Source: Candidatus Anstonellales archaeon
GTDB lineage: Archaea > Micrarchaeota > Micrarchaeia > Anstonellales > J096
Length of the DNA: 64,000 nucleotides
Assembly: GCA_038890745.1 (NCBI GenBank)
Contig: JAWAFD010000005.1
Coordinates: 8,817-72,816, forward strand
Reading direction: 5' to 3'
Both the position numbers and the translations under genes were made by a program. Position 1 is the first letter of the stretch, and every line of letters starts with the position of its first letter. Shown here piece by piece: positions 4,172-55,401 of this stretch. Under the pieces are notes generated by a model, which worked only from the letters and a program-made list of their open reading frames with translations, was not told where the DNA came from and searched no databases.

Positions 4172-4201
4172 TAGGTATAACGCATCCCCGCAATCACGCT
4201 C

Positions 4202-4344
4202 GCGGAACCCAGGGGAGGTCGTAGGAGGTTTTCTTTTGGCGACCTCCCCCATGTTCTACGATACTCCCCACCCCCTCCGCAATCACGCTCGCATACGCTC
4301 GCTTGGGGATAGGTTTTTAAGCACTTAGGAGGATATTATAGTAT
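4202..4344. repeat. Type-A intergenic element (143 nt), identical to 8822..8964, partial copy at 6214..6277
   Basis: Identical sequence sits upstream of small genes 4345, 8965 and (3' part only) 6278. It contains a 10-bp inverted repeat GGGGAGGTCG-N18-CGACCTCCCC (4212..4249). It is flanked by 16-nt direct repeats ccgcaatcacgctcgc (4188..4203 and 4277..4292). It ends in a TATA-like tttttaa about 25-31 nt before the ATG. Confidence 0.85.
4305..4344 (+). promoter_or_regulatory. Putative archaeal promoter (TATA-like tttttaag) of small variable gene; the same element is at 6238..6277 and 8925..8964
   Basis: The conserved gataggtttttaagcacttaggaggatattatagtat sits immediately 5' of the ATG in three copies. 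TATA-like spacing is consistent with a leaderless or short-leader transcript. Confidence 0.4.
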
Positions 4345-4851
4345 ATGGTGATAGGTGTAAAAGAGAGGAAGGATAAGGAAGTTAAGTTTTCTGATAAAAT
4401 TAGAAGGAATTTTGAGAGGTTTAAGGATAAGGTTGAGGGATTGGGGAAGAAGGCAATTATTTTAGGTGGAGTTGGGATTGGAGTAGGTCTAGGGTGTGCG
4501 AGTGATGGAGTTAGTCCAAAACAGTACACACTAGATCAGGTTCAAAGTGGACGGATAACGATTGATGAATTTGTAGAAAACATGGACCTGTACAGTTTGT
4601 GTTACACAAAAGAGGATTCAATAGCTATGGTGGCTATTTTCTGGTGGAAAACAACTGGAAGTAAAGATCCATTAATTTGGGAAAAATTAATAAGAGGGGA
4701 GAATGTAGATTATGAAAGAACTTATCCTCCAAGTGGTCCACCACCTTTTAACGTTAGCAGAGATGATTTGTACGGTTTAAGGGTAGCTACGTCACCGTAT
4801 GTAGATACTCTAATTCAACGCGCAAAAGACGGTGCTCCTCTTATTAAATAA
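4345..4851 (+). CDS. Small variable partner protein 6 (conserved N-terminal basic + Gly-zipper TM head, variable C-terminus)
   Basis: The N-terminal 53 aa, MVIGVKERKDKEVKFSDKIRRNFERFKDKVEGLGKKAIILGGVGIGVGLGCAS, are nucleotide-identical to the heads of 6278.. and 8965... The C-terminus is unique but keeps the family motif T(K/R)(E/D)DS(I/L). Confidence 0.65.
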   Translation: MVIGVKERKDKEVKFSDKIRRNFERFKDKVEGLGKKAIILGGVGIGVGLGCASDGVSPKQYTLDQVQSGRITIDEFVENMDLYSLCYTKEDSIAMVAIFWWKTTGSKDPLIWEKLIRGENVDYERTYPPSGPPPFNVSRDDLYGLRVATSPYVDTLIQRAKDGAPLIK

Positions 4852-4854
4852 GGC

Positions 4855-5526
4855 TCATTTACCTTCCTTGAATTGTTCTTTTAATGCATTCAACTCTTCT
4901 CCAGCTTGTTTTTTCAGTTCTGGAACTGCCACCACTCCTCCAGCATAGCCTATAAGTATGTTCATTTTTATTGCAGATTTATCGTACTTAAATAAATTCA
5001 ACTTATTTGAGCTTTGAGAAAAAGTTTTCCCATATTCTGACAATTGTCCTGATTCCATAGAGGACAACATTACTGACCAGGCCCTTATTCCATATTTCTC
5101 ATCAAGTTGCTGTTTTACTTGAGGGTCAGTAGAGTATTGTTGTATTAAATCGTCAGCTTTTTGTAGTGCTAGTTCAGTACTTTCTCCTTTGGAAATAAAA
5201 TCATCAGCAATAGAAGTACGTAATCCCACCCCTATGTAATAAACTTCAGAAAACCCTGGGGTTTCTTGTTTGATTTTTTTTGTGAGCTTCTCCCCCGCCT
5301 CCGGATCTTTTCTTAAAATTTCTTCAATCTGTGTTCTTTTATCCTCTTCACTCAATTCTTTATTTTCTAATATTGCTGCAATCTGTTCTGAAACTGTTGC
5401 CGCTCTCTCATACAAACTTATTTGTTCTCTTTTCCATTCCTCAAACTGTTTTTCATTAGGAAGTTTTCCTTTCCATTTAGTTAGATAAGCAGCATATAAG
5501 CTTCTTTCTATTTCTGTTGCTGGCAT
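4855..5526 (-). pseudogene. 5'-truncated orphan C-terminal cassette 6 (subfamily B, related to 10813..11727), which lacks the homology-block head
   Basis: It shares ELMPATEIERSLYAAYLTKW(K/E)GKLPNEKQFEEWKREQISLYERAA and the C-terminal N(I/L)LIGY motif with cassette 2. The track ORF 4855..5859 continues upstream only as antisense of the inserted antitoxin gene. There is no QQGTPEY..MNEGEL head. Confidence 0.5.
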
Positions 5527-5623
5527 TAGTTCTGAATTACATTCAATATATGGAGAAAAGGAGGCCCATTCATTAGGCGAAATATTTTTAAGGTTAGGAT
5601 GAGTATATATCAAAGGTGAAAAC

Positions 5624-5830
5624 GTGGAGACTATTACTGTGAACGTAAATTTGCTTAAGGAAATGTACAAAAGAATACTTAGAATAGAGGAAGAGATAAA
5701 GGAAATTAAGTACGCGGTTGTCGAGATAGAAGAAGTATCAGAGAGGGAGATTAAACAACTCGAAAAAAGAAAGAAAGAAGCATTAAAAGGAATGGGAATC
5801 CCACTCAACAAAGCATTAGAGGAATTTTGA
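5624..5830 (+). CDS. Type II antitoxin (RelB-like partner of the downstream RelE), 68 aa
   Basis: It is a small acidic/helical protein. Its stop overlaps the start of the RelE-family gene (ATGA overlap at 5827..5830). Confidence 0.5.
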   Translation: METITVNVNLLKEMYKRILRIEEEIKEIKYAVVEIEEVSEREIKQLEKRKKEALKGMGIPLNKALEEF

Positions 5831-6105
5831 ATATGAGGGAATTCAGGATTATTATACACAAGCAGGTAATAAAGCAGCTTAGAAAGTTAGATGCACGCAT
5901 AAGAAATAATGTAAAAAAGGTTCTGGTTCATCTACAGTATGACCCGGTACCTGCAAAGTCATATGATATAAAGAAACTTTCAAAAGGAGAAGGACATTAC
6001 AGAATAAGAATAGGAAAATTTAGAGTTCTATATTGGGTTGATTTTACAAATTATCTGATTGTAGTAACGGATATCAAACGAAGGGACGAAACAACATACA
6101 AATAG
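5827..6105 (+). CDS. relE: RelE/ParE-family toxin (mRNA interferase), 92 aa
   Basis: The C-terminal HYRIRIGKFRVLYWVD...YLIVVTDIKRRDE is a typical RelE/ParE core (R..G.YR..Y), and the size is typical. Confidence 0.7.
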   Translation: MNMREFRIIIHKQVIKQLRKLDARIRNNVKKVLVHLQYDPVPAKSYDIKKLSKGEGHYRIRIGKFRVLYWVDFTNYLIVVTDIKRRDETTYK

Positions 6106-6277
6106 TGTACCAAACCCCTCTAAGATATCTAATGTGGGTTAAAGCAAAACTTAGGTTAGGTTAAATAATGTTCTAGATGATGTCTTCCGTGCTCTATGCT
6201 ACTTCCCCTCCGCAATCACGCTCGCATACGCTCGCTTGGGGATAGGTTTTTAAGCACTTAGGAGGATATTATAGTAT

Positions 6278-6736
6278 ATGGTGATAGGTGTAAAAGAGAG
6301 GAAGGATAAGGAAGTTAAGTTTTCTGATAAAATTAGGAGAAATTTTGAGAGGTTTAAGGATAAGGTTGAGGGATTGGGGAAGAAGGCAATTATTTTAGGT
6401 GGAGTCGGGATTGGAGTAGGTCTAGGGTGTGCGAGTAAGGATGACAGTATTTATTCGTACTACAATGTTACGACTGCCGACTCAATTAGCCTGGATGAAT
6501 TTAGGCAGTATGTATATCGTGGAGCAGTAACAAGAGAGGACAGCCTACTCGGTCTAGGTAAGTTTATATGTGAAATATGGGGGTTCATACCAACTGAAGA
6601 AGAGTTCTTTAGTATGCCTATGTTGGAGTCTCAAAGAAAGTTTTTTGTATATATCATTGCGGAAAGAGACTATTACAAGTTATTAATAGAAGCGTTAGAA
6701 ACGATTAAAAAAGAAGAAAAGTTAGAAAAAAAATAA
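6278..6736 (+). CDS. Small variable partner protein 5
   Basis: Same conserved 53-aa head. The variable C-terminus carries TREDSLL. Confidence 0.65.
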   Translation: MVIGVKERKDKEVKFSDKIRRNFERFKDKVEGLGKKAIILGGVGIGVGLGCASKDDSIYSYYNVTTADSISLDEFRQYVYRGAVTREDSLLGLGKFICEIWGFIPTEEEFFSMPMLESQRKFFVYIIAERDYYKLLIEALETIKKEEKLEKK

Positions 6737-6758
6737 TTATTCTCTCATAAAGAAAAAA

Positions 6759-7361
6759 CTAAAATCCGCCAAGTAAAACATAGAGCTTCAAATCGCTTAC
6801 ATTTTCTGGTGGCTTAGACCACGCATCCTTATTTTTTGTTATCCTATCGAGAAATTGAGTTAGGTCACAACCTCCCTCTTTAAATGCTTGGGTAAAACCT
6901 TGCGGGTCAAAGGTTTCTGGTTTTAAAAACGATGCAGCGTCATCCAATTTCCTCATTTTCTCTTCTTTTTCTTTTCCATCTGGAACAAAAGAAAGTTCGC
7001 CCTGAGCTTTAGTTATATACTCACTCGCTAGCCCACTCAGCCCACGAAACGCTGCTATTTTGTCTTCATCACTCAATTCTTGATAAGTAGTCCCTCCAGT
7101 TAAAACAGCATAGGCAAGTCGATACTCGTCCGCTCTTTTATCAAAGTAGCTCTGAACTTTTTTAAGTGCTTTTTCATCCCCTTTAAGTGCTTTATCAAGG
7201 GATTTTCTAAGTTCTATATCTTCCCCTGTAAGTTTTTTAGGATCTGCTCCAAGAGTAGCGCTTAGTATACTATACTCTTCTCTTTCCGCTCTATATTTCT
7301 CCGGATTCATATACGCATCCATCAATATTTTTCTCGCCTCTCTTAACTCTCCTTCGTTCAT
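6759..7361 (-). CDS. Orphan C-terminal cassette 5 (ATG = internal MNEGEL Met; frame stays open upstream through the homology block to about 7650)
   Basis: It begins MNEGELREARKILMDAYMNPEKY. The upstream in-frame sequence encodes ...TPEYQDLQATIDKAKPYEEAQNTLQIIASLSIAWKGNIRIGDDVISLG, identical to the other heads. The tail is unique but has the shared GDEKAL...LAY(N/A)VLTG motif. Confidence 0.6.
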   Translation of the reverse strand: MNEGELREARKILMDAYMNPEKYRAEREEYSILSATLGADPKKLTGEDIELRKSLDKALKGDEKALKKVQSYFDKRADEYRLAYAVLTGGTTYQELSDEDKIAAFRGLSGLASEYITKAQGELSFVPDGKEKEEKMRKLDDAASFLKPETFDPQGFTQAFKEGGCDLTQFLDRITKNKDAWSKPPENVSDLKLYVLLGGF

Positions 7362-7620
7362 CCCTAAACTTATTACATCATCTCCAATCCGTATGTTTCC
7401 TTTCCAAGCAATTGATAAGGAAGCTATTATTTGAAGTGTATTTTGCGCCTCTTCATACGGTTTGGCTTTATCTATTGTTGCTTGGAGGTCTTGGTATTCT
7501 GGAGTTTCTTTCTCTACTGTAAATATTGCTTTTCTTGCTTCCTCGGCCTCTTTTAGAATATTTGGGTCAAAGGTTCTACTTAATAAAAATGCTTGGTTTG
7601 TTTGCTCAGTTATTTTTAGG
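7285..7620. repeat. Cassette homology block (about 330 bp), copy in orphan 5
   Basis: It is near-identical to 10000..10335, 11571..11830 (partial), 12912..13250 and 8740..8821 (partial). For example 7362..7509 is identical to 10077..10223. Confidence 0.85.
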
Positions 7621-7627
7621 AGCAGGT

Positions 7628-7678
7628 AGGGGATAGGTTTTTAACTATTTCTTAGCATATTATAATTAGTGTATTAGT
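7628..7678 (+). promoter_or_regulatory. Type-B putative promoter of small gene; copies at 10332..10382 and 11838..11888
   Basis: Conserved ggggataggtttttaactatttcttagcatattata(a/t)ttagtgtattagt precedes the start. It has TATA-like tttttaa and an AT-rich box. Confidence 0.4.
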
Positions 7679-8260
7679 ATGATAGTAGATGGAAAAACGA
7701 GAGAGTTTGGATTTACCAAGAAATTTAGGGAATTTGCTAGAAACTTAGGATTTAAAGGAAGGGATGTTTTGGTTGCTGGAATAATCGGAACTGGAATTTT
7801 ATCTGGCAAGGCTGGAGCCCAGCAGGCAGATTCTTTAGTTATAGATACAAGCTCTGTTCATATAGATTCTACTTATATAGACTGGAGTAAACCAAGGTTT
7901 ATGGGATTGACTTATGGTTATTATTATGATTGGTTTAAAGTAACAGGAGTGGCTGCTTATCGTCTTTATATGGAATATGGTATGAGCTATTCTGATGCGT
8001 TAACGTGGCTCGATAGTGTTCAAACAGCAGGGTCAATCAAGACTTTCCCATATAACCAACCCCAAACAAGAGAGGATACAATTAAAACGATAATTGATTA
8101 TTTTAAGTTGCACTACAATTTATTCCCCAAGAGTGATACTGAACTTGAATGGTACATAAAAACTCACCCAAATAAGGCTGAGCAGATAAAAACAGATTGG
8201 TACATAATACGAAATAGTCCTTATTGGCCTTATCTGGTAGAAGTTGGAAGCAAAAGATAA
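7679..8260 (+). CDS. Small variable partner protein 4 (divergent subfamily)
   Basis: The N-terminus MIVDG..FREFARNLGFKGRDVLVAGIIGTGILSGKAG has the same basic + Gly-rich hydrophobic architecture. It is driven by the type-B element. Its 3' end overlaps the 3' end of 8230..8817 by 31 nt, convergently. Confidence 0.55.
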   Translation: MIVDGKTREFGFTKKFREFARNLGFKGRDVLVAGIIGTGILSGKAGAQQADSLVIDTSSVHIDSTYIDWSKPRFMGLTYGYYYDWFKVTGVAAYRLYMEYGMSYSDALTWLDSVQTAGSIKTFPYNQPQTREDTIKTIIDYFKLHYNLFPKSDTELEWYIKTHPNKAEQIKTDWYIIRNSPYWPYLVEVGSKR

Positions 8261-8817
8261 ATAGCAAGCGAATTTCTATTTAAATTTTCCAAGATATTTG
8301 TTGCGGATTGTAAAGATTTCTGTTTTCCCTTAGCGCCCTCTACAGCAGTTTGGTAATACTTTTCAGAAAGTTTTTCTAATTGTTTTTTTTCTTCGTCACT
8401 ATATTGTTCTGTTTTAAAGAATAATAATAGTGCAATTTTAGCATCATCTTTTTCAAAGTTACCTCCACTAGCAATAACAAAACCAAGTATATCCCGACCC
8501 CGTTGCAACCTATCCTCCTCACTCATTGTAGATGGGTCTTGTTGAATAAATTCAAGAGTAGTAGTTACATTATTCAATCTTGTATTATTATAGCTACTCA
8601 ATTCAGCTATCAATTCCTTCATAGCTTTTTTATCTCCTTTAAGTGCTCTTTCTGTGAGAGTTAACAATTCTTCATCTTGGGTTGTTAATTCTTCTGGTTT
8701 TTTAATACGAACCTCTGTTATTAATGAAATAGCTTCTCTTTCCGCTCTATATTTCTCCGGATTCATATACGCATCCATCAATATTTTTCTCGCCTCTCTT
8801 AACTCTCCTTCGTTCAT
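8230..8817 (-). CDS. Orphan C-terminal cassette 4
   Basis: It starts at the MNEGELREARKILMDAYMNPEKYRAERE Met. The homology block is cut off at 8821/8822, where the type-A element begins (mosaic junction). Confidence 0.6.
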   Translation of the reverse strand: MNEGELREARKILMDAYMNPEKYRAEREAISLITEVRIKKPEELTTQDEELLTLTERALKGDKKAMKELIAELSSYNNTRLNNVTTTLEFIQQDPSTMSEEDRLQRGRDILGFVIASGGNFEKDDAKIALLLFFKTEQYSDEEKKQLEKLSEKYYQTAVEGAKGKQKSLQSATNILENLNRNSLAIYLLLPTSTR

Positions 8818-8821
8818 CCCT

Positions 8822-8964
8822 GCGGAACCCAGGGGAGGTCGTAGGAGGTTTTCTTTTGGCGACCTCCCCCATGTTCTACGATACTCCCCACCCCCTCCGC
8901 AATCACGCTCGCATACGCTCGCTTGGGGATAGGTTTTTAAGCACTTAGGAGGATATTATAGTAT
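8822..8964. repeat. Type-A intergenic element, copy 2 (identical to 4202..4344)
   Basis: It is a 143-nt identity. It continues into the gene head 8965..9128, which equals 4345..4508 with 1-2 mismatches. Confidence 0.85.
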
Positions 8965-9480
8965 ATGGTGATAGGTGTAAAAGAGAGGAAGGATAAGGAA
9001 GTTAAGTTTTCTGATAAAATTAGGAGAAATTTTGAGAGGTTTAAGGATAAGGTTGAGGGATTGGGGAAGAAGGCAATTATTTTAGGTGGAGTTGGGATTG
9101 GAGTAGGTCTAGGGTGTGCGAGTGATGGAATTAGAACATACAATATAGGTAGTAGAACATACTATATCTTATCTACTTCTGAGATCGAAAAAATGAGCAT
9201 AGATGAATTAAGGGCCCATATTTATAAGGGTGCAACGACAAGAGACGATAGTATAACTTGTCTAGCCATGTATATGGCTGCAAGATGGGGATCCATAATA
9301 GGGCATATACCGTTTGCTGATGAGTGGGGACGGATAATTCCAGAACCTACTCTTGAAGAACTACTGATAATAATGGGGGACGGAGCTGGAAACGACCAAC
9401 CACCATACTACATTACAATACTCCTTGGATTATACGGTAGAACAAGTAGCGACGGTAGAACAGAGTTGGTTCCCAAATAA
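8965..9480 (+). CDS. Small variable partner protein 3
   Basis: Conserved 53-aa head. The variable tail carries TTRDDSIT. Confidence 0.65.
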   Translation: MVIGVKERKDKEVKFSDKIRRNFERFKDKVEGLGKKAIILGGVGIGVGLGCASDGIRTYNIGSRTYYILSTSEIEKMSIDELRAHIYKGATTRDDSITCLAMYMAARWGSIIGHIPFADEWGRIIPEPTLEELLIIMGDGAGNDQPPYYITILLGLYGRTSSDGRTELVPK

Positions 9481-9520
9481 AAAACAAATAAAGTAAAACT
9501 TTATTAATAACTATGTATGT

Positions 9521-10231
9521 CTAATATGCACACAGGATTCGAATTTTTAATTCCTTCAAACTTTTTGGTGGGCTAGAGTAGACATCTCTAATGTCTCTTC
9601 TCTCGCTAGCAAAAGTAGCTTGGTCAACTCCAATGTCTCCTAATACTTTTGTAAAGTCTTGTAGGTTAAAAGTTTCTATGTTCATCAAGTAGGGATATAA
9701 TGTGGATATTTTATGCAACAGGTATGGTTCGAATTCGCCTCCTACATACAAACCGCGTAGTGTTGTTTTTTTGTCTTCTTCATCTAGATTTTGATAGTCA
9801 ACATTTCCAGTTAAAACATTATAAGCAAGGTCATAGTCATGTGCTTTTTCTCTAAAGTAGTTCTGAAGTTCTCTGAGTGCTTTTTCATCTCCGTTAATTG
9901 CTCTATCAAGATCTCTTCTAAGCTTGATGTCTTTTTCATCTGTAAGTTTCTCAGGATCTGCTGTAAGTGTAATAGCCAATAATCCATATACTGTTTTTTC
10001 TGCCTTATATTTCTCCGGATTCATATACGCATCCATCAATATTTTTCTCGCCTCTCTTAACTCTCCTTCGTTCATCCCTAAACTTATTACATCATCTCCA
10101 ATCCGTATGTTTCCTTTCCAAGCAATTGATAAGGAAGCTATTATTTGAAGTGTATTTTGCGCCTCTTCATACGGTTTGGCTTTATCTATTGTTGCTTGGA
10201 GGTCTTGGTATTCTGGAGTTCCTTGCTGCAC
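9521..10231 (-). CDS. Orphan C-terminal cassette 3 (called from GTG = Val of TVQQGTPEY; frame open further upstream)
   Basis: The head QQGTPEYQDLQATIDKAKPYEEAQNTLQIIASLSIAWKGNIRIGDDVISLGMNEGELREARKILMDAYMNPEKY is followed by a unique tail. The upstream in-frame sequence encodes ...EQTNQAFLLSRTFDPKIIEAANEAKKQLPTV, homologous to the full-length gene. Confidence 0.6.
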   Translation of the reverse strand: MQQGTPEYQDLQATIDKAKPYEEAQNTLQIIASLSIAWKGNIRIGDDVISLGMNEGELREARKILMDAYMNPEKYKAEKTVYGLLAITLTADPEKLTDEKDIKLRRDLDRAINGDEKALRELQNYFREKAHDYDLAYNVLTGNVDYQNLDEEDKKTTLRGLYVGGEFEPYLLHKISTLYPYLMNIETFNLQDFTKVLGDIGVDQATFASERRDIRDVYSSPPKSLKELKIRILCAY

Positions 10232-10335
10232 TGTAGGAAGTTGTTTTTTTGCTTCATTAGCGGCCTCTATAATTTTTGGGTCAAAGGTTCTACTTAATAA
10301 AAATGCTTGGTTTGTTTGCTCAGTTATTTTTAGGA
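10000..10335. repeat. Cassette homology block, copy in orphan 3
   Basis: See 7285..7620. Confidence 0.85.
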
Positions 10336-10382
10336 GCAGGTAGGGGATAGGTTTTTAACTATTTCTTAGCATATTATGGTAT

Positions 10383-10835
10383 ATGATGATAGGTGTAAAA
10401 GAGAGGAAGGATAAGGGAGATAAGTTTTCTGATAAGATTAGGAGAAATTTTGAGAGGTTTAAAGAGAGAGTTGAACTAAAAGTAAAAAACACATCACCAA
10501 AGACAGGAATCTTATTATCTGCTCTGTTATTTGGAGAGTGGAGTCTCGTCAGCCTAGATGGTATGAAGTCAGTCCTTGAAGAATCTGACCCGATTTATGG
10601 TCAAGTTTTCACAGAACTCTGCGATAAGATCTACTCTCGATGCACTACGAAACAAGATAGTATAGACGTTGCAAGAGCTACACTTAAAGAAGCCACTGGA
10701 AGTAGCGATCCAGAGATGTGGGTAAAAGTTTTTAGTAATCTTCTCAGCAACAGTTTTAGAGATGGAAAATGTACAAACGAGGACTTTAAGTTATTGCTAA
10801 TATTTTATGCTACTATTCCATATGCAAGCCAATGA
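10383..10835 (+). CDS. Small variable partner protein 2
   Basis: MMIGVKERKDKGDKFSDKIRRNFERFKERVE head with a type-B promoter. The tail carries TTKQDSID. Its 3' end overlaps 10813..11727 by 23 nt, convergently. Confidence 0.6.
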   Translation: MMIGVKERKDKGDKFSDKIRRNFERFKERVELKVKNTSPKTGILLSALLFGEWSLVSLDGMKSVLEESDPIYGQVFTELCDKIYSRCTTKQDSIDVARATLKEATGSSDPEMWVKVFSNLLSNSFRDGKCTNEDFKLLLIFYATIPYASQ

Positions 10836-11727
10836 TAGATTTAAGCCCAATGGCAGTAGAAACTGCGAAATAATATCCTATAAGTAGATTCTGTTTAAAA
10901 TATACACTGCCCATCTCTTCTACTTTATTTTGTTTTTTATCTAGATCAGTAATAATATTGGCAAGATGTTCTGAACTTGGTCTGATTTCTACGGATGGGA
11001 GTCTTATCCCATCTATCATGAAATTCGCTATCGACATTGCATAGTATGGGGCTACCCTATCAGAAGCCTCTTTATTACCCGTTCCTGCTTTATTAAAAAT
11101 GTCTAAAGCTTTTGGCATTGCATTTTGTATAGCCGCGACTTCATCTTTGGTCAAATTATCTGATTTTTTTCCAACTTCGACTCCTGCGATCTCCTGAGCT
11201 AAAAATATCCGCGCATTAGTAGATATAAAGGTGGACAAAGTGGGCATAAGTATATTAAATTCTTGTGCTAACAAACTTATGCTGGCGTAATCAAGACCAA
11301 TTAATGCCTTCTCTATCTCCTCCTGACTCGCTCCTTTTTCCAATAAATCTGCTATTTCTTTTGCTTTATCCGCCGCTCTCTCATACAAACTTATTTGTTC
11401 TCTTTTCCATTCCTCAAACTGTTTTTCATTAGGAAGTTTTCCTTCCCATTTAGTTAGATAAGCAGCATATAAGCTTCTTTCTATTTCTGTTGCTGGCATT
11501 AGTTCTGACCAATCTTTTCCATATAAAGAGATTATCTTTTCTCTCGCTTCTTTTAGTTCTTTTTCATTCATCCCTAAACTTATTATATCATCTCCAATCC
11601 GTATGTTTCCTTTCCAAGCAATTGATAAGGAAGCTATTATTTGAAGTGTATTTTGCGCATCTTCATACGGTTTGGCTTTATCTATTTTTGCTTGGAGGTC
11701 TTGGTATTCTGGAGTTCCTTGCTGCAC
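10813..11727 (-). CDS. Orphan C-terminal cassette 2 (subfamily B tail)
   Basis: The head is identical up to ...IISLGMNE. It then switches to KELKEAREKIISLYGKDWSELMPATEIERSLYAAYLTKWEGKLPNEKQFEEWKREQISLYERAA plus a unique tail ending NLLIGYYFAVSTAIGL, which is hydrophobic. Confidence 0.6.
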   Translation of the reverse strand: MQQGTPEYQDLQAKIDKAKPYEDAQNTLQIIASLSIAWKGNIRIGDDIISLGMNEKELKEAREKIISLYGKDWSELMPATEIERSLYAAYLTKWEGKLPNEKQFEEWKREQISLYERAADKAKEIADLLEKGASQEEIEKALIGLDYASISLLAQEFNILMPTLSTFISTNARIFLAQEIAGVEVGKKSDNLTKDEVAAIQNAMPKALDIFNKAGTGNKEASDRVAPYYAMSIANFMIDGIRLPSVEIRPSSEHLANIITDLDKKQNKVEEMGSVYFKQNLLIGYYFAVSTAIGLKSIIGLHME

Positions 11728-11830
11728 TGTAGGAAGTTGTTTTTTTGCTTCCTCGGCCTCTTTTAGAATTTTTGGGTCAAAGGTTCTACTTAATAAAAAT
11801 GCTTGGTTTGTTTGCTCAGTTATTTTTAGG
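11571..11830. repeat. Cassette homology block, copy in orphan 2 (upstream half only)
   Basis: See 7285..7620. Confidence 0.8.
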
Positions 11831-11888
11831 AGCAGGTAGGGGATAGGTTTTTAACTATTTCTTAGCATATCATAATTAGTGTATTAGT

Positions 11889-12416
11889 ATGGTAGAAAAA
11901 GTTAAAGTAAGGAAACAGGAGGATGCTAAAGAAACAGAAAATAGAGCGGGTATTTTTGAAAGGTTTAAAGATATAGTGGAGAGATTTGGAAACAAGGCTT
12001 TAATTGCTGGGGTTCTTTTAGGTGGAGGTGTTGGAGTAGGAAAAGGATTCAGTATAAACGAAGGAGCTACATCTAGGCAGGATAGCATTAAAATAGAACT
12101 TGAGTTCTGGTTAGGATACGTTGACGCTTTCCAAACCTTTGGTATCGATGGAACCATAGTTAACCCTGAATTGGCGGATGAGATATATAAAGATGCTTCA
12201 ACCAAAAGCGATAGCACTACACAAGCAATAAATTTTTGGCTTAGGGAAACAGGGCAGGTCCCATACTCAAGTATAGATGTTTGTATAATGCTCAAGATAC
12301 TGGCCACGATGGATTGGGAAGACTTAGCAACTTTCAGCCAATATGCGCAACGAATTAGCGATGGATGGCTATTAACTCAACCCTATCTTAACAAAGAGAT
12401 TAATTCAAATCGTTAA
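11889..12416 (+). CDS. Small variable partner protein 1 (partner of the full-length gene tail)
   Basis: The head MVEKVKVRKQEDAKETENRAGIFERFKDIVERFGNKALIAGVLLGGGVGVGKG is a diverged member of the same family. The tail carries TSRQDSIK. Its 3' end overlaps the 3' end of 12405..14723 by 12 nt. Confidence 0.6.
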   Translation: MVEKVKVRKQEDAKETENRAGIFERFKDIVERFGNKALIAGVLLGGGVGVGKGFSINEGATSRQDSIKIELEFWLGYVDAFQTFGIDGTIVNPELADEIYKDASTKSDSTTQAINFWLRETGQVPYSSIDVCIMLKILATMDWEDLATFSQYAQRISDGWLLTQPYLNKEINSNR

Positions 12417-14723
12417 TAGTAAAATCTTTGTTTTAAAGTTCATAGGATTTATTCCTTGATCTATTTTTTTCTTGTTATTGTCAATCTCCAAAGTAAGTTT
12501 GGAGTTTTGCTCCTTTATATCCTTCACTACTTGTTCTTGTACCTGAGGATTCGAGTCCAAAAACTGCATAGTGAATAGTATTTTATCTTCAATAGTTGGG
12601 AATTTTTTTACCTCATCTTGATATTCCACTCCACCATATTTATAAGATAGCGCAACAATATTACCAAAAACTCGGGATGTGGTTGCTTTATCAAAGGAAC
12701 TTATATCACCACCTTCCAAAAGCGTTAGTGCAGCATTATACGCGAGTAAACGTCTCTCTTGCTCTAGATACAGTTGATTCCTAACTCTTTCCAATGCTTT
12801 CTCATCTCCACTTGCCGCTTTTATTATATCCTCTCTCAGTTTCTTATCCTCATCTGTTATTTGTTTTTCGGGCGTTCTTAATGCAACAATAATTGGTGCA
12901 AGCAAACTTTTTTCGTCTTTATATTTCTCTCGATTCATATACGCATCCATCAATATTTCTCTCGCCTCTCTTAACTCTCCTTCGTTCATCCCTAAACTTA
13001 TTATATCATCTCCAATCCGTATGTTTCCTTTCCAAGCAATTGATAAGGAAGCTATTATTTGAAGTGTATTTTGCGCATCTTCATACGGTTTGGCTTTATC
13101 TATTTTTGCTTGGAGGTCTTGGTATTCTGGAGTTCCTTGCTGCACTGTAGGAAGTCGTTGTCTTGCTTCATTAGCGGCCTCTATAATTTTTGGGTCAAAG
13201 GTTCTACTTAATAAAAATGCTTGGTTTGTTTGCTCAGTTATTTCGGCAATGAATTTTTTTCCTTCTTCTGTGCTTAACAATTCTTTATCGTTTACTATTT
13301 CTGAACAAAGACCAAAAGCTCTTGAGAGTTGGGTGTATAATTGAGCTTTTGCTTCGTCTTCTTCTGCTTTTGCTGATGCCCTGTACAACTCTGAGAGGTT
13401 TGAGTAGATTGCCTTTTTATCTTTTGGATCTACTTCCTTTCCTTCTAAAAGCTTTTGGAGTTCGGATGAATTCTCTGTTAGGTACTTTAGCTGCTCTCTT
13501 GCCGCTCCTCTCATTAGTCCTCCCACTATTGCCTCAGAGACACCAAAAAATTCAGCTAATGAAGCAATATTTCCACGTGCAAAACCAACCATCAAAGCCG
13601 CTGAAAATATCTGGCTTACACCAAACTGTCCTGTTGCTATTGCTACTCTCTGCTGGCCTGCCCTTAACTCACCTCCTCCGCCCCCCTCCTTCACTTTCTT
13701 TCCTGTCCAGAACCTCCCTTTTCCAACTCCTCTTAATCTTTCTTCTACTATTCCCATATTCTCCGCTATCCATGCTGGTCTTCCTCTTATCAACCCTTCT
13801 TTTACCCTACCGGGAAGAATTTTTGTCGCAATTCCTCCCATTGCTTCAACCGCTTTGGTAGCTGCTCTGGTTGTTACAGAGACGCCTTTTTCCACTGCTT
13901 CAACAGCTTTTTTAATAAAAGAAACTTTCTTTCCTAACTCAACTGCTTTTCCGCCAAGTTTTTTTGCATGTGGGGCGACCTTAGCCACGACCTTAGCCTG
14001 TTGCAGAGTAATCCCTCCCTTCCCTGTTATTCTTGCTCTTTGGCCTGTAATAAATCTTAAAGTATTCAGATCAAACCAGAAAAATGGGCTTCCACCAGTG
14101 GCATAGGAAGCAGCGAGAAGCATGCCTGCGATTATAAAAAGAGGTAAGCAGATTGCAGGTGCGGTTCCTCCAAAAAGAGGAGGAAGGAGTGTTGGGATGT
14201 AAACGACTTGGGCATATGTTGGGGAAAGGGTTGCAAAAATAGGCTGACCATTTTTATTTATGTATGCTGACTCAGGCCATGGGGCTGGTTTAAACCCTCC
14301 GCATGGAGAAACATCTTCAAAAGAGGTTATACTTTCGTTTAGGCAGGGCTGGAGAAGGCAGTTTGGAGAAGAGGAGCAGCAAAACTTTACACCTATCGTA
14401 CACCCCCTTACCATCCCTGTTCCTGAGCATGTTTCGTTATAAGGTGTTAGGTCAAAAACCGCTTTTCCATTCTCATTTGTAAAAACCCTGCACCTAGAAT
14501 AAAGGTCACCAGTTGCATTATACACTTCAATAAATAGGGTTGCGTTCCCAACAGGAAGCCTTTCTCCATTATAAACGGCATACATGTATATATCTACATT
14601 TTTTTCAACCAAACCTGCAATAATCCCGGATTCATAAGCATTAAAAAGCTCCTCACAGCCAGGGCAGGGAGGCTGAGAGAAAAGCAAACTCATAAAAAAT
14701 AAAAGAAAAAATACTTTTCTCAT
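12405..14723 (-). CDS. Full-length cassette-bearing protein. It has a signal peptide, a Cys-rich ectodomain, a TM segment and a long helical region. It also carries the homology block (QQGTPEY..MNEGEL, nt about 12912..13250) and variable C-terminal module 1 (nt 12405..about 12910).
   Basis: 772 aa. The N-terminus MRKVFFLLFFMSLLFSQ matches the signal peptides of the upstream paralogs. The hydrophobic ICLPLFIIAGMLLAASYATGG is followed by R-x-GG-type motifs. The middle is nucleotide-identical to the orphan heads. It is the last gene of the 12.4-25.3 kb minus-strand operon. Confidence 0.7.
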   Translation of the reverse strand: MRKVFFLLFFMSLLFSQPPCPGCEELFNAYESGIIAGLVEKNVDIYMYAVYNGERLPVGNATLFIEVYNATGDLYSRCRVFTNENGKAVFDLTPYNETCSGTGMVRGCTIGVKFCCSSSPNCLLQPCLNESITSFEDVSPCGGFKPAPWPESAYINKNGQPIFATLSPTYAQVVYIPTLLPPLFGGTAPAICLPLFIIAGMLLAASYATGGSPFFWFDLNTLRFITGQRARITGKGGITLQQAKVVAKVAPHAKKLGGKAVELGKKVSFIKKAVEAVEKGVSVTTRAATKAVEAMGGIATKILPGRVKEGLIRGRPAWIAENMGIVEERLRGVGKGRFWTGKKVKEGGGGGELRAGQQRVAIATGQFGVSQIFSAALMVGFARGNIASLAEFFGVSEAIVGGLMRGAAREQLKYLTENSSELQKLLEGKEVDPKDKKAIYSNLSELYRASAKAEEDEAKAQLYTQLSRAFGLCSEIVNDKELLSTEEGKKFIAEITEQTNQAFLLSRTFDPKIIEAANEARQRLPTVQQGTPEYQDLQAKIDKAKPYEDAQNTLQIIASLSIAWKGNIRIGDDIISLGMNEGELREAREILMDAYMNREKYKDEKSLLAPIIVALRTPEKQITDEDKKLREDIIKAASGDEKALERVRNQLYLEQERRLLAYNAALTLLEGGDISSFDKATTSRVFGNIVALSYKYGGVEYQDEVKKFPTIEDKILFTMQFLDSNPQVQEQVVKDIKEQNSKLTLEIDNNKKKIDQGINPMNFKTKILLLTI
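12912..13250. repeat. Cassette homology block inside the expressed full-length gene
   Basis: See 7285..7620. Downstream orphans are truncated exactly upstream of this block. Confidence 0.85.
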
Positions 14724-40660: not shown

Positions 40661-41578
40661 ATGCAGGCGAAAACAAAGAAAACCATTTCTGATATAAAGG
40701 CACTAAAAATACAGGGGGCAAGGAATGTTGCAAAAGCAGCGCTTAATGCTTTAATATACGAGATTGAAAACTCAAAAGAAAAAAGCTCAAATGAATTTGT
40801 GAGGAAAATTTCAAAAACAATAGAAGTGCTAAGCAAGGCAAGGCCAACAGAGCCGATGCTTAGGAATGTTATGGGAAGGGCGCAGAACTATATTGTGAAA
40901 AACAGGAGGAAGGACGCTGCGCTTTTGAAAAACGGCGCGGTTTCTGAATGCAGAAAAATTTTAAAATACATGGATGAAAGCGTGGAGAAGATTAAAGAGT
41001 ACGGGGCAAAATACCTTCCTGAAAAAGCAACGGTACTCGTTCACTGCCACTCCTCCACCGTAACTGGAATAATAAAAAGAGCGGTGAAGATGGGAAAAGA
41101 AATAGATGTTATTGCATGCGAAACAAGGCCAAGGTATCAGGGCAGGATTACTGCAAAGGAGCTCGCAGAGGAAGGAATAAAGGTAACCTTTATCGTAGAT
41201 GGGGCGATGAATGTTTTTGCTAGAAAGGCTGATCTGGCTCTTGTTGGTGCGGACGCAATAACCGCTGCCGGTGATCTGGTGAATAAGATAGGAACATCAA
41301 CCCTCGCGCGCATAATCCGGACTCATGACAAAAGCTTTTTTTCTGCTGCTGAAACACTAAAATATGACCCAATGACCCAGTATGGGGCAAGGGAGGAGAT
41401 AGAAGAAAGGGACCCTGATGAAGTGTGGGATATAAGGATGAAAAACCTGAAAATAAGAAATCCTGCGTTTGATGTCACAGCCGCAAAATACATAAATGCG
41501 TACATAACAGAGAAAGGGATAATCCCGCCGCAGTCTCTTATCAGCGTGCTCGAAAAGGAAAGAGAAGAAAAAGTTTAA
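40661..41578 (+). CDS. eIF-2B alpha/beta/delta-family protein (archaeal aIF-2B / ribose-1,5-bisphosphate isomerase-like)
   Basis: Family core VLVHCHSSTV...GADAITAAGDLVNKIGT. 305 aa. Confidence 0.6.
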   Translation: MQAKTKKTISDIKALKIQGARNVAKAALNALIYEIENSKEKSSNEFVRKISKTIEVLSKARPTEPMLRNVMGRAQNYIVKNRRKDAALLKNGAVSECRKILKYMDESVEKIKEYGAKYLPEKATVLVHCHSSTVTGIIKRAVKMGKEIDVIACETRPRYQGRITAKELAEEGIKVTFIVDGAMNVFARKADLALVGADAITAAGDLVNKIGTSTLARIIRTHDKSFFSAAETLKYDPMTQYGAREEIEERDPDEVWDIRMKNLKIRNPAFDVTAAKYINAYITEKGIIPPQSLISVLEKEREEKV

Positions 41579-41603
41579 AACCTAATTTATCAGTATTAAA
41601 ACA

Positions 41604-41812
41604 GCGGTTGTGGTCTAGAGGTAGGACTCTGGCTTCCCAAGCCAGCGGCCCGGGTTCAAAACCAAACCCAGGGGGAAGTTTCCCCCTAGGTTCCAGGTCT
41701 CCTCCTTAACCCCATCACTTTTGCTCGTATAAGATAGGGGGGTAGAAGCGTGAGGGGGGAATAAGAATATGCTTAAGTCCCCCCTTGGCTGGTGGAAATC
41801 CCGGCAACCGCA
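41604..41812 (+). tRNA. tRNA-Gly(CCC) interrupted by an intron of about 138 nt in the T-loop (exon 1 about 41604..41660, exon 2 about 41799..41812)
   Basis: Acceptor GCGGTTG pairs with CAACCGC+A 200 nt downstream. D-arm GTC/GAC. Anticodon stem CTGGC/GCCAG with loop TTCCCAA. T-stem CCGGG (41650..41654) pairs with CCCGG (41800..41804). The T-loop TTCAAA|..|T is split. The intron contains GGGGGAAGTTTCCCCC and G6/C6 hairpins. Confidence 0.7.
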
Positions 41813-41837: not shown

Positions 41838-42542
41838 GTGGTTAAATATTTTATGCGGTGGGGGATAAAACATTCATTTTCTGTTTTTGAGGATAGGCTT
41901 CCATATCTAAAAAGAGCTGAAATAAAAAGATACAGAGGAATTCTTCCGAAGTTTTCAGAAGAGTATGAAAGAAAATTTGGAAGGGAAAAATTGACAAGGA
42001 TCGCATTTCCGCTCATAGAGGAAGCAATCACAAAATACCCGCCAAAGAACTTTCAGAAAGGATATGTCGGCGAGAGTTTGGCCGCGGCAGTGGTCTCTCT
42101 ATTTATGGATGAAAGCGAACTCCTTATAAGAAATCTAAAATTTTTCTACGAGTTTGGATGCGGGGAAATAGACTTGGCGATATTCAACGGTCCTTTCTTG
42201 ACCGCAATAGGTGAGGTAAAAACTGGTGTAAATGGAAAACACAAAAGAAACCTTTCGAAAGTAAGGCACATCCGCGAGGCCCTGGGCTTAAGCGTAGATA
42301 GAGAAGAGATAAGTATTCTAAGCAGAATCTCTTTATCAGTAGCAAACATAGAGGGAATGACTAAAATAAGTCCGGTTAGGATAGACCTGGGCCCGAACAA
42401 AATAGAAATATACATTATGTATATGGCAAAGCTTTTTTCAGTCGGCCCATGGGACGCATGCTCAGAGAGTAATCCAACCATCAAAATACCCATTCACTCA
42501 TCTGGAATAGGAATCCTTGCGGATGAATTGAAAATGTTGTAA
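41838..42542 (+). CDS. PD-(D/E)xK nuclease-fold protein (hypothetical)
   Basis: GEIDLAIF...AIGEVKTG resembles the D...E-x-K restriction-endonuclease-like core. Confidence 0.35.
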   Translation: MVKYFMRWGIKHSFSVFEDRLPYLKRAEIKRYRGILPKFSEEYERKFGREKLTRIAFPLIEEAITKYPPKNFQKGYVGESLAAAVVSLFMDESELLIRNLKFFYEFGCGEIDLAIFNGPFLTAIGEVKTGVNGKHKRNLSKVRHIREALGLSVDREEISILSRISLSVANIEGMTKISPVRIDLGPNKIEIYIMYMAKLFSVGPWDACSESNPTIKIPIHSSGIGILADELKML

Positions 42543-42599: not shown

Positions 42600-43124
42600 A
42601 TGCTACAAAAATATAGCAGGTACAAAATTCTGCAGAAGTTTTTCGACTTTCCAACAAAAAGTTTTTATATGAGAGAGATTTCGAGGATTGTTGGAATATC
42701 CCAACCATCAACAATAGCACATCTAAAAGCATTGGTAAAGGAAGGATTCATAATAAAAGAAAAGAAAGGTATATACCCATCATTCAAAGCAAATAGAGAA
42801 AATGAGCGGTTTAGGGTATACAAAAAATTAGACCTTATAATAAGGATGCATGATAGCGGCTTTATAAACTATATCCTTGATCTCTGCCTACCCGACTCAT
42901 TGATACTGTACGGATCGGCTTCTAAGGGAGAGGACATAGAAACCAGCGATATCGATATATTTATTCAGTCTAAGGAGAAAAAAATAATTGTTGGGAAATA
43001 TGAAAAATTATTTAATAGAAGAATTGCTCTTTTTTTTGAAGAAAACTTCTCGAGATTACCCGCAGAACTAAAAAACAATATTCTAAATGGGGTAGTACTA
43101 CACGGGTATATAAAGGTGTTCTAG
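42600..43124 (+). CDS. Minimal nucleotidyltransferase (MNT) with N-terminal wHTH
   Basis: GSASKGEDIETSDIDIFI is the GS-x(n)-D-x-D nucleotidyltransferase motif. Confidence 0.6.
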   Translation: MLQKYSRYKILQKFFDFPTKSFYMREISRIVGISQPSTIAHLKALVKEGFIIKEKKGIYPSFKANRENERFRVYKKLDLIIRMHDSGFINYILDLCLPDSLILYGSASKGEDIETSDIDIFIQSKEKKIIVGKYEKLFNRRIALFFEENFSRLPAELKNNILNGVVLHGYIKVF

Positions 43125-43550
43125 ATGGAGTTGATTAAGGTTACGCCCAATAGAGAAAGGGCTGTTAGCATCCTTCGCATGGTTTCTTTAATAGAGAAAA
43201 GAATAGAGAAAGAGGATAAAGAAAAAATGGCTGCACTCATAATAGTGGATTATTATGAAATGATGAAGGAGCTCATCACTGCGATACTCTTAATCGATGG
43301 GTATAAAACACTGAGCCATAAAGATCTGATAGAATATCTTAAACAACACTATCCTGAATTCAACCAACACGACATTTCAATCTTGGATAGAATTAGAGTT
43401 CTGCGAAACAGGGTAAGTTATGAAGGTTTTTTTATTGAGCCATCCTACCTTACTAGGAATGAAAATACCTTCAAAAAAATAATTCAAAAATTAAAAAATG
43501 TTGTAAATAAGAAATTGAGTGCCAACAGCAGCCGCCTTTCCCGCCCATAG
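43125..43550 (+). CDS. HEPN-like partner of MNT (putative type VII TA toxin)
   Basis: Small helical protein immediately after MNT (stop/start abut), with an R-x(4)-type motif (RVLRNRVSYEG). The last 10 codons or so run antisense into the 5S rRNA gene. Confidence 0.4.
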   Translation: MELIKVTPNRERAVSILRMVSLIEKRIEKEDKEKMAALIIVDYYEMMKELITAILLIDGYKTLSHKDLIEYLKQHYPEFNQHDISILDRIRVLRNRVSYEGFFIEPSYLTRNENTFKKIIQKLKNVVNKKLSANSSRLSRP

Positions 43551-43635
43551 GGCAGTAATCGGACAGCCGTGAGAGGGCTTAACTTCTGTGTTCGGGATGG
43601 GAACAGGTGTTACCCCTCTCCTATGGCCGTTGGCA
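43520..43635 (-). rRNA. rrf: 5S ribosomal RNA
   Basis: The minus strand reads UGCCAACGGCCAUAGGAGAGGGGUAACACCUGUUCCCAUCCCGAACACAGAAGUUAAGCCCUCUCACGGCUGUCCGAUUACUGCCCUAUGGGCGGGAAAGGCGGCUGCUGUUGGCA. Terminal helix GCCAAC/GUUGGC, plus universal 5S boxes CCGAAC..GAAGUUAAGCCC and UACUGCC. Confidence 0.85.
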
Positions 43636-54351: not shown

Positions 54352-55401
54352 ATGATGGTTGTTCTTTGCAGATTCTGTAATGAGAGGTTTAAGAAAAAAT
54401 TCAAAGAGGGCGAGTGCTACATATGCAAAGGGAATGTCGAAAAAATAATAAGAAATGTTGAAAAGGTAGACATAAAATTACCGGTGAAAAACGCTGAGTC
54501 TTTCTCCATCTCCACAGCAATCCCGAAAGAGGTTGTTTTAAGAGAGGAGGACGTATTCGACATCGTTTTGGGCGAGAGTATAAAAAGCTGGCTGAATGCA
54601 AAGGTTGTTGAGATTCTAGCAAAAAAAACAAAACTGAAATACAAGGCAACATATTCTGATGTAAATTTTACTATTGATTGGAGCGGGAATGTTTTTGCTT
54701 CTGTGAAAAACCTTTTCATATTCGGAAGGTACAAAAAATATTCTAATGAGATAAGCCAAAGTAAGGGATACTGGAAGGGAAAGGGAAGCGTTGAAGAGAG
54801 TATAGGAGAGGTGATGGAGGAGGAATGCGAAGGAACGCGCCATAGTCTGCATGCCTCTGGGAGGGAGGATGTGGATGCCCTGAATTTTGCAGGCAGGCCC
54901 TTTGTTATGGAGATTTACAGCGCAAAGGAGAGAAAACCGGATTTGGAAAAAATTAAGAGGAGAATAGATGAAACCGGAGTTGTCGAGGTAAGCGATTTGA
55001 GAATTGTTGATGGAAGCGCTGTTGCGATAATTACAGATTCTCATTTTGATAAGAGGTATAGAGCCTATCTAAGCGAAGAATTGAGCGAGGGGCAGAAGAA
55101 AAAAATAAAGGAATGTATAGAAGGAAAGATAATAGAGCAGTGGACGCCGAAAAGAGTTGAGAGAAGAAGGGCAAAGAAAATTAGGAAAAGGAAAGTTTAT
55201 TCTATTGATTTCGGAGAGGATGGGGAGGGGCAGTATGCCGAGGTAGAGGCAGAGGCGGGAACATACATAAAAGAGTTGATCAATGGGGATGAAGGAAGGA
55301 CAAAACCGAGCTTTTCTGAAATTTTGGGTAAGCCCTTGGAATGCAAAAAGCTTATAGTTGTTGCGATAAAAGATGATTTTATAAGGGATGTGGTGGGTTG
55401 A
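54352..55401 (+). CDS. pus10: tRNA pseudouridine synthase Pus10
   Basis: N-terminal Zn-ribbon CRFC...CYIC. Catalytic region SGREDVDALNFAGRPFVMEIYSA matches the Pus10 GREDxD...GRPF signature. Confidence 0.75.
   Translation: MMVVLCRFCNERFKKKFKEGECYICKGNVEKIIRNVEKVDIKLPVKNAESFSISTAIPKEVVLREEDVFDIVLGESIKSWLNAKVVEILAKKTKLKYKATYSDVNFTIDWSGNVFASVKNLFIFGRYKKYSNEISQSKGYWKGKGSVEESIGEVMEEECEGTRHSLHASGREDVDALNFAGRPFVMEIYSAKERKPDLEKIKRRIDETGVVEVSDLRIVDGSAVAIITDSHFDKRYRAYLSEELSEGQKKKIKECIEGKIIEQWTPKRVERRRAKKIRKRKVYSIDFGEDGEGQYAEVEAEAGTYIKELINGDEGRTKPSFSEILGKPLECKKLIVVAIKDDFIRDVVG

Follow-up and report, generated by a model that had tools for sequence, protein, structure and literature searches.

Non-canonical introns have been recorded 673 times in 217 archaeal genomes with tRNAscan-SE 2.0 (PMC8450103). 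In ARMAN-2 (Candidatus Micrarchaeum), such introns are found in the T-loop between positions 59 and 60: pre-tRNA-Cys has a 59/60 intron with a relaxed splicing motif, and the motif is strict in pre-tRNA-Pro, which is interrupted at 53/54 and 59/60 (Fujishima et al., 2011, PMC3239211). A 59/60 intron was cut in vitro by the three-unit epsilon2 endonuclease of ARMAN-2 (PMC3239211). The element described here is located at positions 41604–41812 on the plus strand of a 64-kb stretch of DNA (contig JAWAFD010000005.1; the whole stretch is called the window below) and is very likely a tRNA-Gly(CCC) gene of an Anstonellales archaeon with a 138-nt intron of the bulge–helix–bulge (BHB) type in the T-loop at position 59/60. 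The locus shares with ARMAN-2 the phylum, the T-loop site, and the predicted BHB-dependent removal of the intron, and the tRNA-Pro of ARMAN-2 also displays the strict hBHBh' form of the motif. It differs in the tRNA affected, in the order (hot-spring Anstonellales), and in the intron itself, which is 138 nt long, palindromic, and modular. Moreover, the window intron is polymorphic in the population, and homologous sequence is located outside the gene in relatives.

Three further systems are comparable. For the Thermoproteales, non-canonical tRNA introns and their proposed transposition among tRNA genes have been described (Fujishima et al., 2010, as cited in PMC4090602 and PMC3239211). As far as these citing articles portray them, the Thermoproteales introns have in common with the present case the non-canonical BHB sites, including the T-loop, and the occurrence of related introns at several places, a pattern displayed by two other contigs of this study (L030 and L020). 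According to the same accounts, the window locus differs in its host, a DPANN archaeon with two FtsZ-like genes and not a crenarchaeon, and in that the relatives of its intron come from the corresponding locus of other lineages and not from different tRNA genes. The tRNA-Thr(GGU) locus of Caldiarchaeum subterraneum is heterogeneous in a natural population (Sugahara et al., 2012, PMC3293823), and a model was put forward in which the tRNA intron derived from a mobile element's integration (PMC3293823). Both loci show presence or absence of the intron among near-identical genomes of one population, and a link to mobile elements is proposed for both. In Caldiarchaeum, the additional intron is located at 24/25 and a 1.8-kb element encodes a recombinase, whereas the insert described here comprises 138 nt, no recombinase was seen, and sister lineages also have the sequence directly behind the intact gene. 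The passages on the tRNA-Trp intron of Euryarchaeota in PMC4090602 and PMC12558985 describe a C/D box guide RNA in this intron at 37/38 and, as in the present case, a long structured archaeal intron whose release and circularisation follow BHB cleavage (predicted for the window intron). Compared to the intron in these passages, the window intron lacks the boxes: neither box C (RUGAUGA) nor box D (CUGA) was seen by eye, no Rfam match was obtained at E ≤ 5, and a function as C/D box guide RNA was therefore set aside.

The origin of non-canonical archaeal tRNA introns is debated, and transposition and mobile-element integration are the proposals. The locus in the window and its counterparts, from near-identical to distant genomes, occur in four states, namely with the intron, with a diverged variant of it, without intron, and with the sequence shifted by 15 nt to a place outside the gene. 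These alleles form a compact natural set for testing such proposals. The interest rests on the allele series at one locus and not on the existence of the intron. A 59/60 intron is not very unusual for this lineage. The kind of intron is known; new are the close relatives with the same gene intronless or with intron sequence just outside the gene.

The 5' exon (41604–41660, plus strand, 57 nt, tRNA positions 1–59) was defined by the sequence, Rfam, ARAGORN, and a constrained fold. It comprises the 5' strand of the acceptor stem, the D arm, the anticodon arm with the anticodon CCC, a 4-nt variable loop, the 5' strand of the T-stem, and the T-loop nucleotides UUCAAA. The intron (41661–41798, plus strand, 138 nt) was delimited by the junction fold and by the length difference from the intronless allele of a relative. 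The 3' exon (41799–41812, plus strand, 14 nt) consists of U60, the T-stem strand CCCGG, the acceptor strand CAACCGC, and the discriminator A73; a CCA end is not encoded. When 41604–41660 and 41799–41812 are joined, the resulting 71 nt are called as tRNA-Gly(CCC) by ARAGORN. All 25 pairs imposed on the spliced tRNA and its junction are standard (acceptor 7, D 4 including one U-G, anticodon 5, T 5, central BHB helix 4). A preliminary description, made from the letters of the window, had proposed a tRNA-Gly(CCC) with a T-loop intron of about 138 nt and the completion of T-stem and acceptor stem by TCCCGG-CAACCGC-A; the insert is exactly 138 nt long, and both proposals were borne out. Its layout of the 5' part also agrees with the sequence except for the D stem, which had been drawn with three base pairs and has four (GUCU/GGAC). 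The acceptor stem starts with G1-C72, C2-G71, and G3-C70, which, together with A73, we take to be consistent with archaeal glycine identity.

In its interrupted form, the gene escapes ARAGORN. The program called no tRNA in the whole 64-kb window, even in the intron mode that the preliminary description had suggested, because this program permits introns in the anticodon loop only. The Rfam tRNA model matched the 5' part (41604–41670) with 29.3 bits, which barely exceeds the gathering score of 29, compared to 68–70 bits for intact orthologues. The interrupted tRNA-Gly(CCC) genes of other uncultured archaea are probably missed by ARAGORN as well, and metagenome-assembled genomes of such archaea may be scored as lacking tRNAs that are actually present. 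Upstream of the gene, a TATA-like box (TTTAAAA, 41574–41580, plus strand) was recognized by eye as a putative promoter element; its center is located about 27 nt 5' of tRNA position 1, and it overlaps the stop codon of the gene for an IF-2B-family protein.

Since runs of A flank both junctions, the sequence alone would permit an insert at any position from 56/57 through 59/60, and the register is fixed at 59/60 by the geometry of the BHB. According to the archaeal rule applied here, the 4 nt ending 2 nt upstream of each cut pair with each other and are flanked by an outer and an inner helix. The 5' half of the motif (41650–41664, plus strand) contains the T-stem strand CCGGG (h), UUCA of positions 54–57 for the central helix, the bulge A58-A59|A with the cut after 41660, and CCA (h'). 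The 3' half (41790–41804, plus strand) contains UGG (h'), UGGA for the central helix, the bulge A-A|U60 with the cut after 41798, and CCCGG (h). The outer helix is thus the T-stem (CCGGG/CCCGG), the central helix is formed by four base pairs of U54-U55-C56-A57 with UGGA (41793–41796), the bulges comprise 3 nt each, and the inner helix is formed by CCA (41662–41664) and UGG (41790–41792). In the constrained fold, the junctions fit the strict 3-4-3 hBHBh' form. A central helix of four base pairs together with an inner helix of at least three base pairs appeared in this fixed register in 0.09% of 200,000 shuffles of the intron. A BHB-like fold at the junctions, for which the preliminary description had suggested a search, was hence found in canonical form and exact register. 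Its second assumption, an endonuclease of relaxed specificity, does not follow from this intron alone, because the motif is strict and not of the relaxed hBH type. Between the two intron variants described below, none of the 71 exon nucleotides is changed, which is taken as a sign of selection on the exons, and the nucleotides forming the BHB are identical.

Three lines of evidence, namely the strictness of the motif, the conservation of the exons, and the lineage's precedent, lead us to infer that the precursor of tRNA-Gly(CCC) is spliced. The precursor would be transcribed from the TATA-like box about 27 nt upstream and cut by the endonuclease EndA in both bulges. An RtcB-type ligase would join the tRNA halves, which would give the T-loop UUCAAAU, CCA would be added post-transcriptionally, and the intron would be set free, probably in circular form. 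With UUCA paired in the precursor, Pus10 could modify U54/U55 only after splicing. A gene for Pus10, presumably the enzyme that makes pseudouridine at archaeal tRNA positions 54/55, is located at 54352–55401 (plus strand) in the window.

The proteins of the window are labeled "MAG: ... [Candidatus Anstonellales archaeon]" at NCBI. Anstonellales belong to the class Micrarchaeia in the DPANN kingdom Nanobdellati, and the genome was assembled from a hot-spring metagenome. The window contains two FtsZ-like genes, assigned by sequence and by FtsZ Pfam domains in the corresponding gene at a sister locus, and further encodes an ATP-dependent DNA ligase, a class I LysRS, and a stand-alone 5S rRNA at a G+C content of about 41%. 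The preliminary description had named Thermoproteales and some DPANN lineages as the main setting of such introns; the organism, with its Anstonellales label and its two FtsZ-like genes, is a DPANN archaeon and not a member of Thermoproteales. With regard to the splicing enzyme, a three-unit EndA of 387 amino acids is encoded at another Micrarchaeota locus (L012). It has more than 1000 relatives, of which the best 120 are of similar length, many of them labeled Micrarchaeia; a three-unit endonuclease of epsilon-type length is common in this class. No entry labeled Anstonellales was among the best 120 relatives obtained with this Micrarchaeota query. A query with EndA of M. jannaschii retrieved only methanogen, nanoarchaeal, and woesearchaeal relatives and was uninformative on Anstonellales.

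Two pattern scans targeting the anticodon arm and the T arm of tRNA-Gly(CCC) returned 30 loci, and an insert at 59/60 was present in four of the 14 genome loci of these scans. Altogether, 16 distinct 59/60 introns of 31–155 nt were found in tRNA-Gly(CCC), including that of the window and its sister variant. The register is common to all 16, with all four central helix pairs formed in 11 and three of four in the remaining 5; the inner helices vary in sequence and mostly still pair. The 3' end -UGRA-NN|U recurs in other 59/60 introns and reads UGGA-AA|U in the window. Calling the intron rare, as in the preliminary description, was an overstatement for position 59/60 in view of the 14 further introns and those of ARMAN-2 published in 2011. 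With 138 nt, the window intron is the second longest of the 16; the longest, of 155 nt, is located at a locus without any synteny with the window (L009). No homology of these two introns is claimed, as their likeness is confined to a GGGG...CCCC hairpin near the start.

A few of the contigs examined contain more than one interrupted site. On L030, two Gly tRNA genes 9.6 kb apart (4190–4437, plus strand, and 13890–14075, minus strand) have 59/60 introns that are 98% identical (106/108) in spite of differing exons; one has the anticodon CCC, whereas the anticodon of the other is probably UCC, and about 66 nt are inserted in its anticodon loop. This pair looks like a case of intron copying between genes. 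A tRNA-Val(TAC)-like gene on L020 (11984–12150) contains inserts after the anticodon loop and at 59/60, which share the module AAGCTTTT(T)GGAGAAAAG(C/A)TTGAGCAAAAA; its T-loop insert ends with UGGA-AA|U. On L013, a Micrarchaeota contig, the tRNA gene beside tRNA-Gly(CCC) (5335–5450) seems to be interrupted in the T-loop, too (GGTTCGATATAAGGGCGTCGCACGTCCTTATCAAATCCTACCGAAAGAGATTCCGCC).

Syntenic loci of relatives were fetched via variants of the IF-2B-family protein that is encoded just 5' of the tRNA (40661–41578 in the window); the percentages given below are identities to the window protein. Intron variant A belongs to the loci with the window protein (100%, L001–L003). Variant B is found in L036, where it is complete, and in L037, which stops within the intron (both 98%). 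Two further loci with 98% identity are L034, which is intronless with the T-loop TTCAATT, and L035, which stops in the T-loop at GGGTTCAA. At a distance of 80%, the T-loop of L038 is broken after TTCAA by TAAGCCAGGGG... and the contig stops before any 3' exon. The gene is intact in L039–L041 (80%), where it is followed directly by about 390–570 nt of G5/C5 hairpin units, and in L045 (80%), where about 150 nt of such units follow directly. L046 (79%) is free of a T-loop intron and has about 46 nt inserted in the D-loop, and L042–L044 (75%–77%) have an intact gene without the units. L107 and L108 (72%), the outgroup in the IF-2B tree, have a D-loop insert and a T-loop insert after TTCGAA. The intact genes of the relatives were verified by ARAGORN and Rfam, and none of the interrupted copies in the seven related loci tested was called by ARAGORN.

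The intronless L034 represents the same locus as the window: its exons are identical except for tRNA position 59, and the next gene starts exactly 138 nt earlier. In 4 kb of flanking sequence, L034 and L036 (variant B) are sisters with 15 and 7 private sites, respectively, and 49 sites set the window apart from both. This places the intronless allele within a group of genomes that bear the intron. The species of the window thus includes two diverged intron variants and one intronless allele. Its T-loop reads TTCAATT, as in other genera, whereas splicing or a clean deletion would leave TTCAAAT. For this reason, it looks like an ancestral allele that was retained or re-imported and not like the product of a simple deletion. 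The AA|AC junction is common to the window and the outgroup locus L107. On the tree, gains and losses of the intron are equally parsimonious, with four events either way. Variants A and B differ by 13 mismatches and two gaps over the 138 nt of the intron, and their flanks are 1.5% apart. The differences are distributed unevenly, with 2 in the first 81 nt compared to 11 mismatches and 2 gaps in the last 57 nt, which suggests that the second unit of the intron was replaced and that the intron as a whole did not evolve uniformly fast.

Two observations accompany this series. Seven independently assembled contigs (L002, L003, L035, L037, L038, L107, and L108) end inside or at the T-loop insert, which may reflect coexisting alleles in the samples or breaks of the assembly at the palindromic hairpins. 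The D-loop inserts of tRNA-Gly(CCC) in L046 (1355–1400) and L107 (2450–2495, both approximate) are homologous and about 45 nt long (TCTAG|AGCCTTGAACGGCAA...CAA|TGGTATGA), and their second hairpin displays paired changes (GTCTGC...GCAGAC vs. GCCTG...CAGGC).

The intron is composed of two hairpin units. The first G5/C5 hairpin (CCCAGGGGGAAGUUUCCCCCUAGG, 41667–41690, plus strand) has homologous units in sister lineages, located in the T-loop insert or the 3' flank of this gene; the profile match of the first unit covers 41665–41696 (E = 2.5 ∙ 10−4; z = 4.2 against the flank of L039). The second unit, M2 (41729–41791, plus strand), consists of G6, 11 nt, G6, 19 nt, and C6 and is an inverted copy of a unit of about 55 nt. 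M2 is homologous to two or three copies located 3' of the intact tRNA gene in L039–L041 (profile E = 4.7 ∙ 10−15), and these matches cross strands. The two internal hairpins predicted in the preliminary description are both present, one as GGGGGAAGTTTCCCCC at 41671–41686 and the other formed by a G6 run at 41754–41759 and a C6 run at 41779–41784. Intron positions 68–125 align with the downstream unit of L040 with a score of 50 compared to 19.9 ± 2.8 for shuffled sequences. Between the T-loop insert of L038 and the 3' flank of L039, the match begins at the first base (z = 28), and the visible 58 nt of the T-loop insert of L108 match positions 110–171 of the L039 flank (z = 24.5) and are collinear with the 5' half of the window intron; the z-scores for unit homology amount to 10.7, 24.5, and 28. 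The profiles of the two unit types match each other on opposite strands with E-values down to 6 ∙ 10−11, and the intron is thus made up of inverted copies of one unit of about 55 nt, which form an imperfect palindrome. The arms of the inverted repeats are 32–36 nt long and 75%–81% complementary in L039 and 14 nt long with 79% complementarity in the window. Three other lineages have homologous units in the T-loop of this gene, two have them directly 3' of nucleotide 73 of the intact gene, and four lack them. It follows that the intron belongs to an unstable, recombining sequence family tied to the tRNA-Gly(CCC) locus, as judged from sequence comparison. No Rfam family covered the intron or the hairpin units in a permissive search (E ≤ 5) of the window and six related loci. 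An open reading frame (ORF) was absent from the intron in the single plus-strand frame read by eye, the other frames being unchecked.

Several points weigh against a spliced intron of this kind. With the cloverleaf and the BHB enforced, the fold has −85.5 kcal/mol compared to −88.7 kcal/mol without constraint, a cost of only about 3 kcal/mol that counts in favor of the motif; on the other side, the minimum free energy structure favors a 6 × 6 internal loop over the BHB, which is common for BHB motifs, yet gives no positive support. Genes for EndA and the ligase were not found in 74 kb, i.e., the window plus 10 kb more of the contig. A T5 run in variant B and a T4 run in variant A are located within the intron and could terminate some archaeal transcription. 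The tRNA-Gly(CCC) may also be dispensable if tRNA-Gly(UCC) reads GGG, in which case an unspliced, disrupted gene would be tolerable. Moreover, no further copy of the units exists in the same 74 kb, so that a dispersed mobile family is not demonstrated.

A rival explanation is that the palindromic non-coding insertion destroyed a dispensable tRNA-Gly(CCC), which stays unspliced while GGG is read by another Gly tRNA. In accordance with such a pseudogene, the insert is made of hairpin units that also exist outside the gene in relatives and resembles inserted DNA more than a dedicated intron, it contains the T4/T5 runs, the gene is not called by ARAGORN, and intronless alleles coexist in the population. 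This explanation is nevertheless unlikely, given that a strict BHB in exact register is expected by chance with a frequency of about 9 ∙ 10−4 and the register is kept by fifteen other introns at this site. Furthermore, the exons are unchanged (0/71) between variants that differ at about 11% of the intron positions, and both variants conserve the nucleotides of the BHB. A self-splicing group I intron or an assembly chimera has a negligible probability. Group I introns do exist in archaea and in tRNA genes of some bacteria, but 138 nt are too short for their core (about 200 nt or more), and no Rfam match appeared even at E ≤ 5. As for a chimera, the insert or its start was found in GCA_038891555.1 (contig JAWADZ010000005.1) and in two independent Logan assemblies, and the variant of the insert occurs in two further NCBI assemblies; this recurrence in several independent assemblies shows that the insert is no assembly artefact.

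If the tRNA is spliced, the insert may have arisen as a small mobile non-coding element or as the remnant of an integrated element; both origins are compatible with splicing. For the remnant, it is conceivable, albeit tentative, that an integrative plasmid or a virus took the tRNA gene's 3' part (T-loop to 3' end) as attachment site for site-specific integration and then decayed. Loss of the 3' copy borne by the element would have kept element DNA between the 5' body and the native 3' end, as in the window, L038, and L107, and loss of the distal copy would have placed this DNA behind an intact gene, as in L039 and L045. This scenario agrees with the presence of the same sequence, from the first base onward (z = 28), after GGGTTCAA in L038 and after the intact 3' end in L039, with the varying gene content 3' of the tRNA among close relatives, and with the published mobile-element model for Caldiarchaeum (PMC3293823). 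The last 8 nt of the intron also resemble the T-arm (GGTGGAAA vs. GGTTCAAT), but 6/8 matches are largely forced by the pairing rules of the BHB, and a degenerate T-arm copy was set aside on these grounds. Against an integration scar, the window and each of the loci contain a single copy of the tRNA 3' part, which was also absent from all viral contigs, and no integrase Pfam domain was found on the called neighboring genes, several of which have no Pfam match at all. A viral or plasmid origin was searched with a 15-mer of the first unit as well; all of its 60 matches were due to chance and none came with the hairpin, and this origin was rejected together with the missing 3' part in viral contigs. 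In L045, a partial copy of this 3' part is located in inverted orientation downstream of the gene, but the match (16 nt, 75%) was too weak to be used.

Somewhat speculative, and rather doubtful at present, is the insertion of a small non-autonomous element, either hairpin-ended or similar to a miniature inverted-repeat transposable element (MITE), in or beside the tRNA 3' region, whose own ends provide the intron half of the BHB. Terminal inverted repeats as in MITEs are present, since the two halves of the intron are inverted copies of one unit. The two positions of the sequence, 59/60 and after nucleotide 73, are 15 nt apart, its presence is polymorphic, it is multiplied in tandem in L039–L041, and variants A and B form a mosaic as described above. 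In other DPANN contigs, near-identical introns are shared by two genes (L030, 98%) or recur within a single gene (L020). Opposed to this, every copy seen is at the tRNA-Gly(CCC) locus with none dispersed in the 74 kb of this genome, a transposase was not identified, and there is no clean target-site duplication when the intronless TTCAATTCC is compared to the interrupted TTCAAA...GGAAATCC. In the most specific version, which we likewise hold to be doubtful, the insert represents one copy of a small element, palindromic and non-coding, whose targets are the 3' regions of tRNA genes in Micrarchaeia; its ends CCA...UGG-UGGA-AA would complete the BHB, and removal by EndA would render the insertion harmless. 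It would then be an archaeal counterpart of the transposon-derived introns of eukaryotes ("introners"), and the copies after the intact gene, the tandem copies, the intronless allele, and the mosaic variant would be traces of the movement of the element.

Every lineage examined has a different gene content 3' of the tRNA. In the window, a protein of 229 amino acids without Pfam match is encoded at 41853–42542 (plus strand), 41 nt past the tRNA; it is kept beside the tRNA in L034, L045, and L046, and, by eye, its sequence (…GEIDLAIF…GEVKTG…) resembles a PD-(D/E)xK nuclease motif. A gene pair of the toxin–antitoxin type (42600–43550), located between the tRNA and the 5S rRNA gene, encodes an HTH-domain nucleotidyltransferase and a protein with a HEPN domain; the pair is absent from the otherwise collinear L034. 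The 5S rRNA gene (43520–43634, minus strand, 79 bits) is located 1.7 kb from the tRNA and overlaps the 3' end of the HEPN ORF (43125–43550), so the annotated end of this ORF may be wrong. A striking repetitive array at 4200–13200 of the window consists of four to six tandem cassettes of about 1.3–2.9 kb with short divergent genes, which share intergenic stretches of 99%–100% identity (e.g., GGGGATAGGTTTTTAAGCACTTAGGAGGATATTATA).

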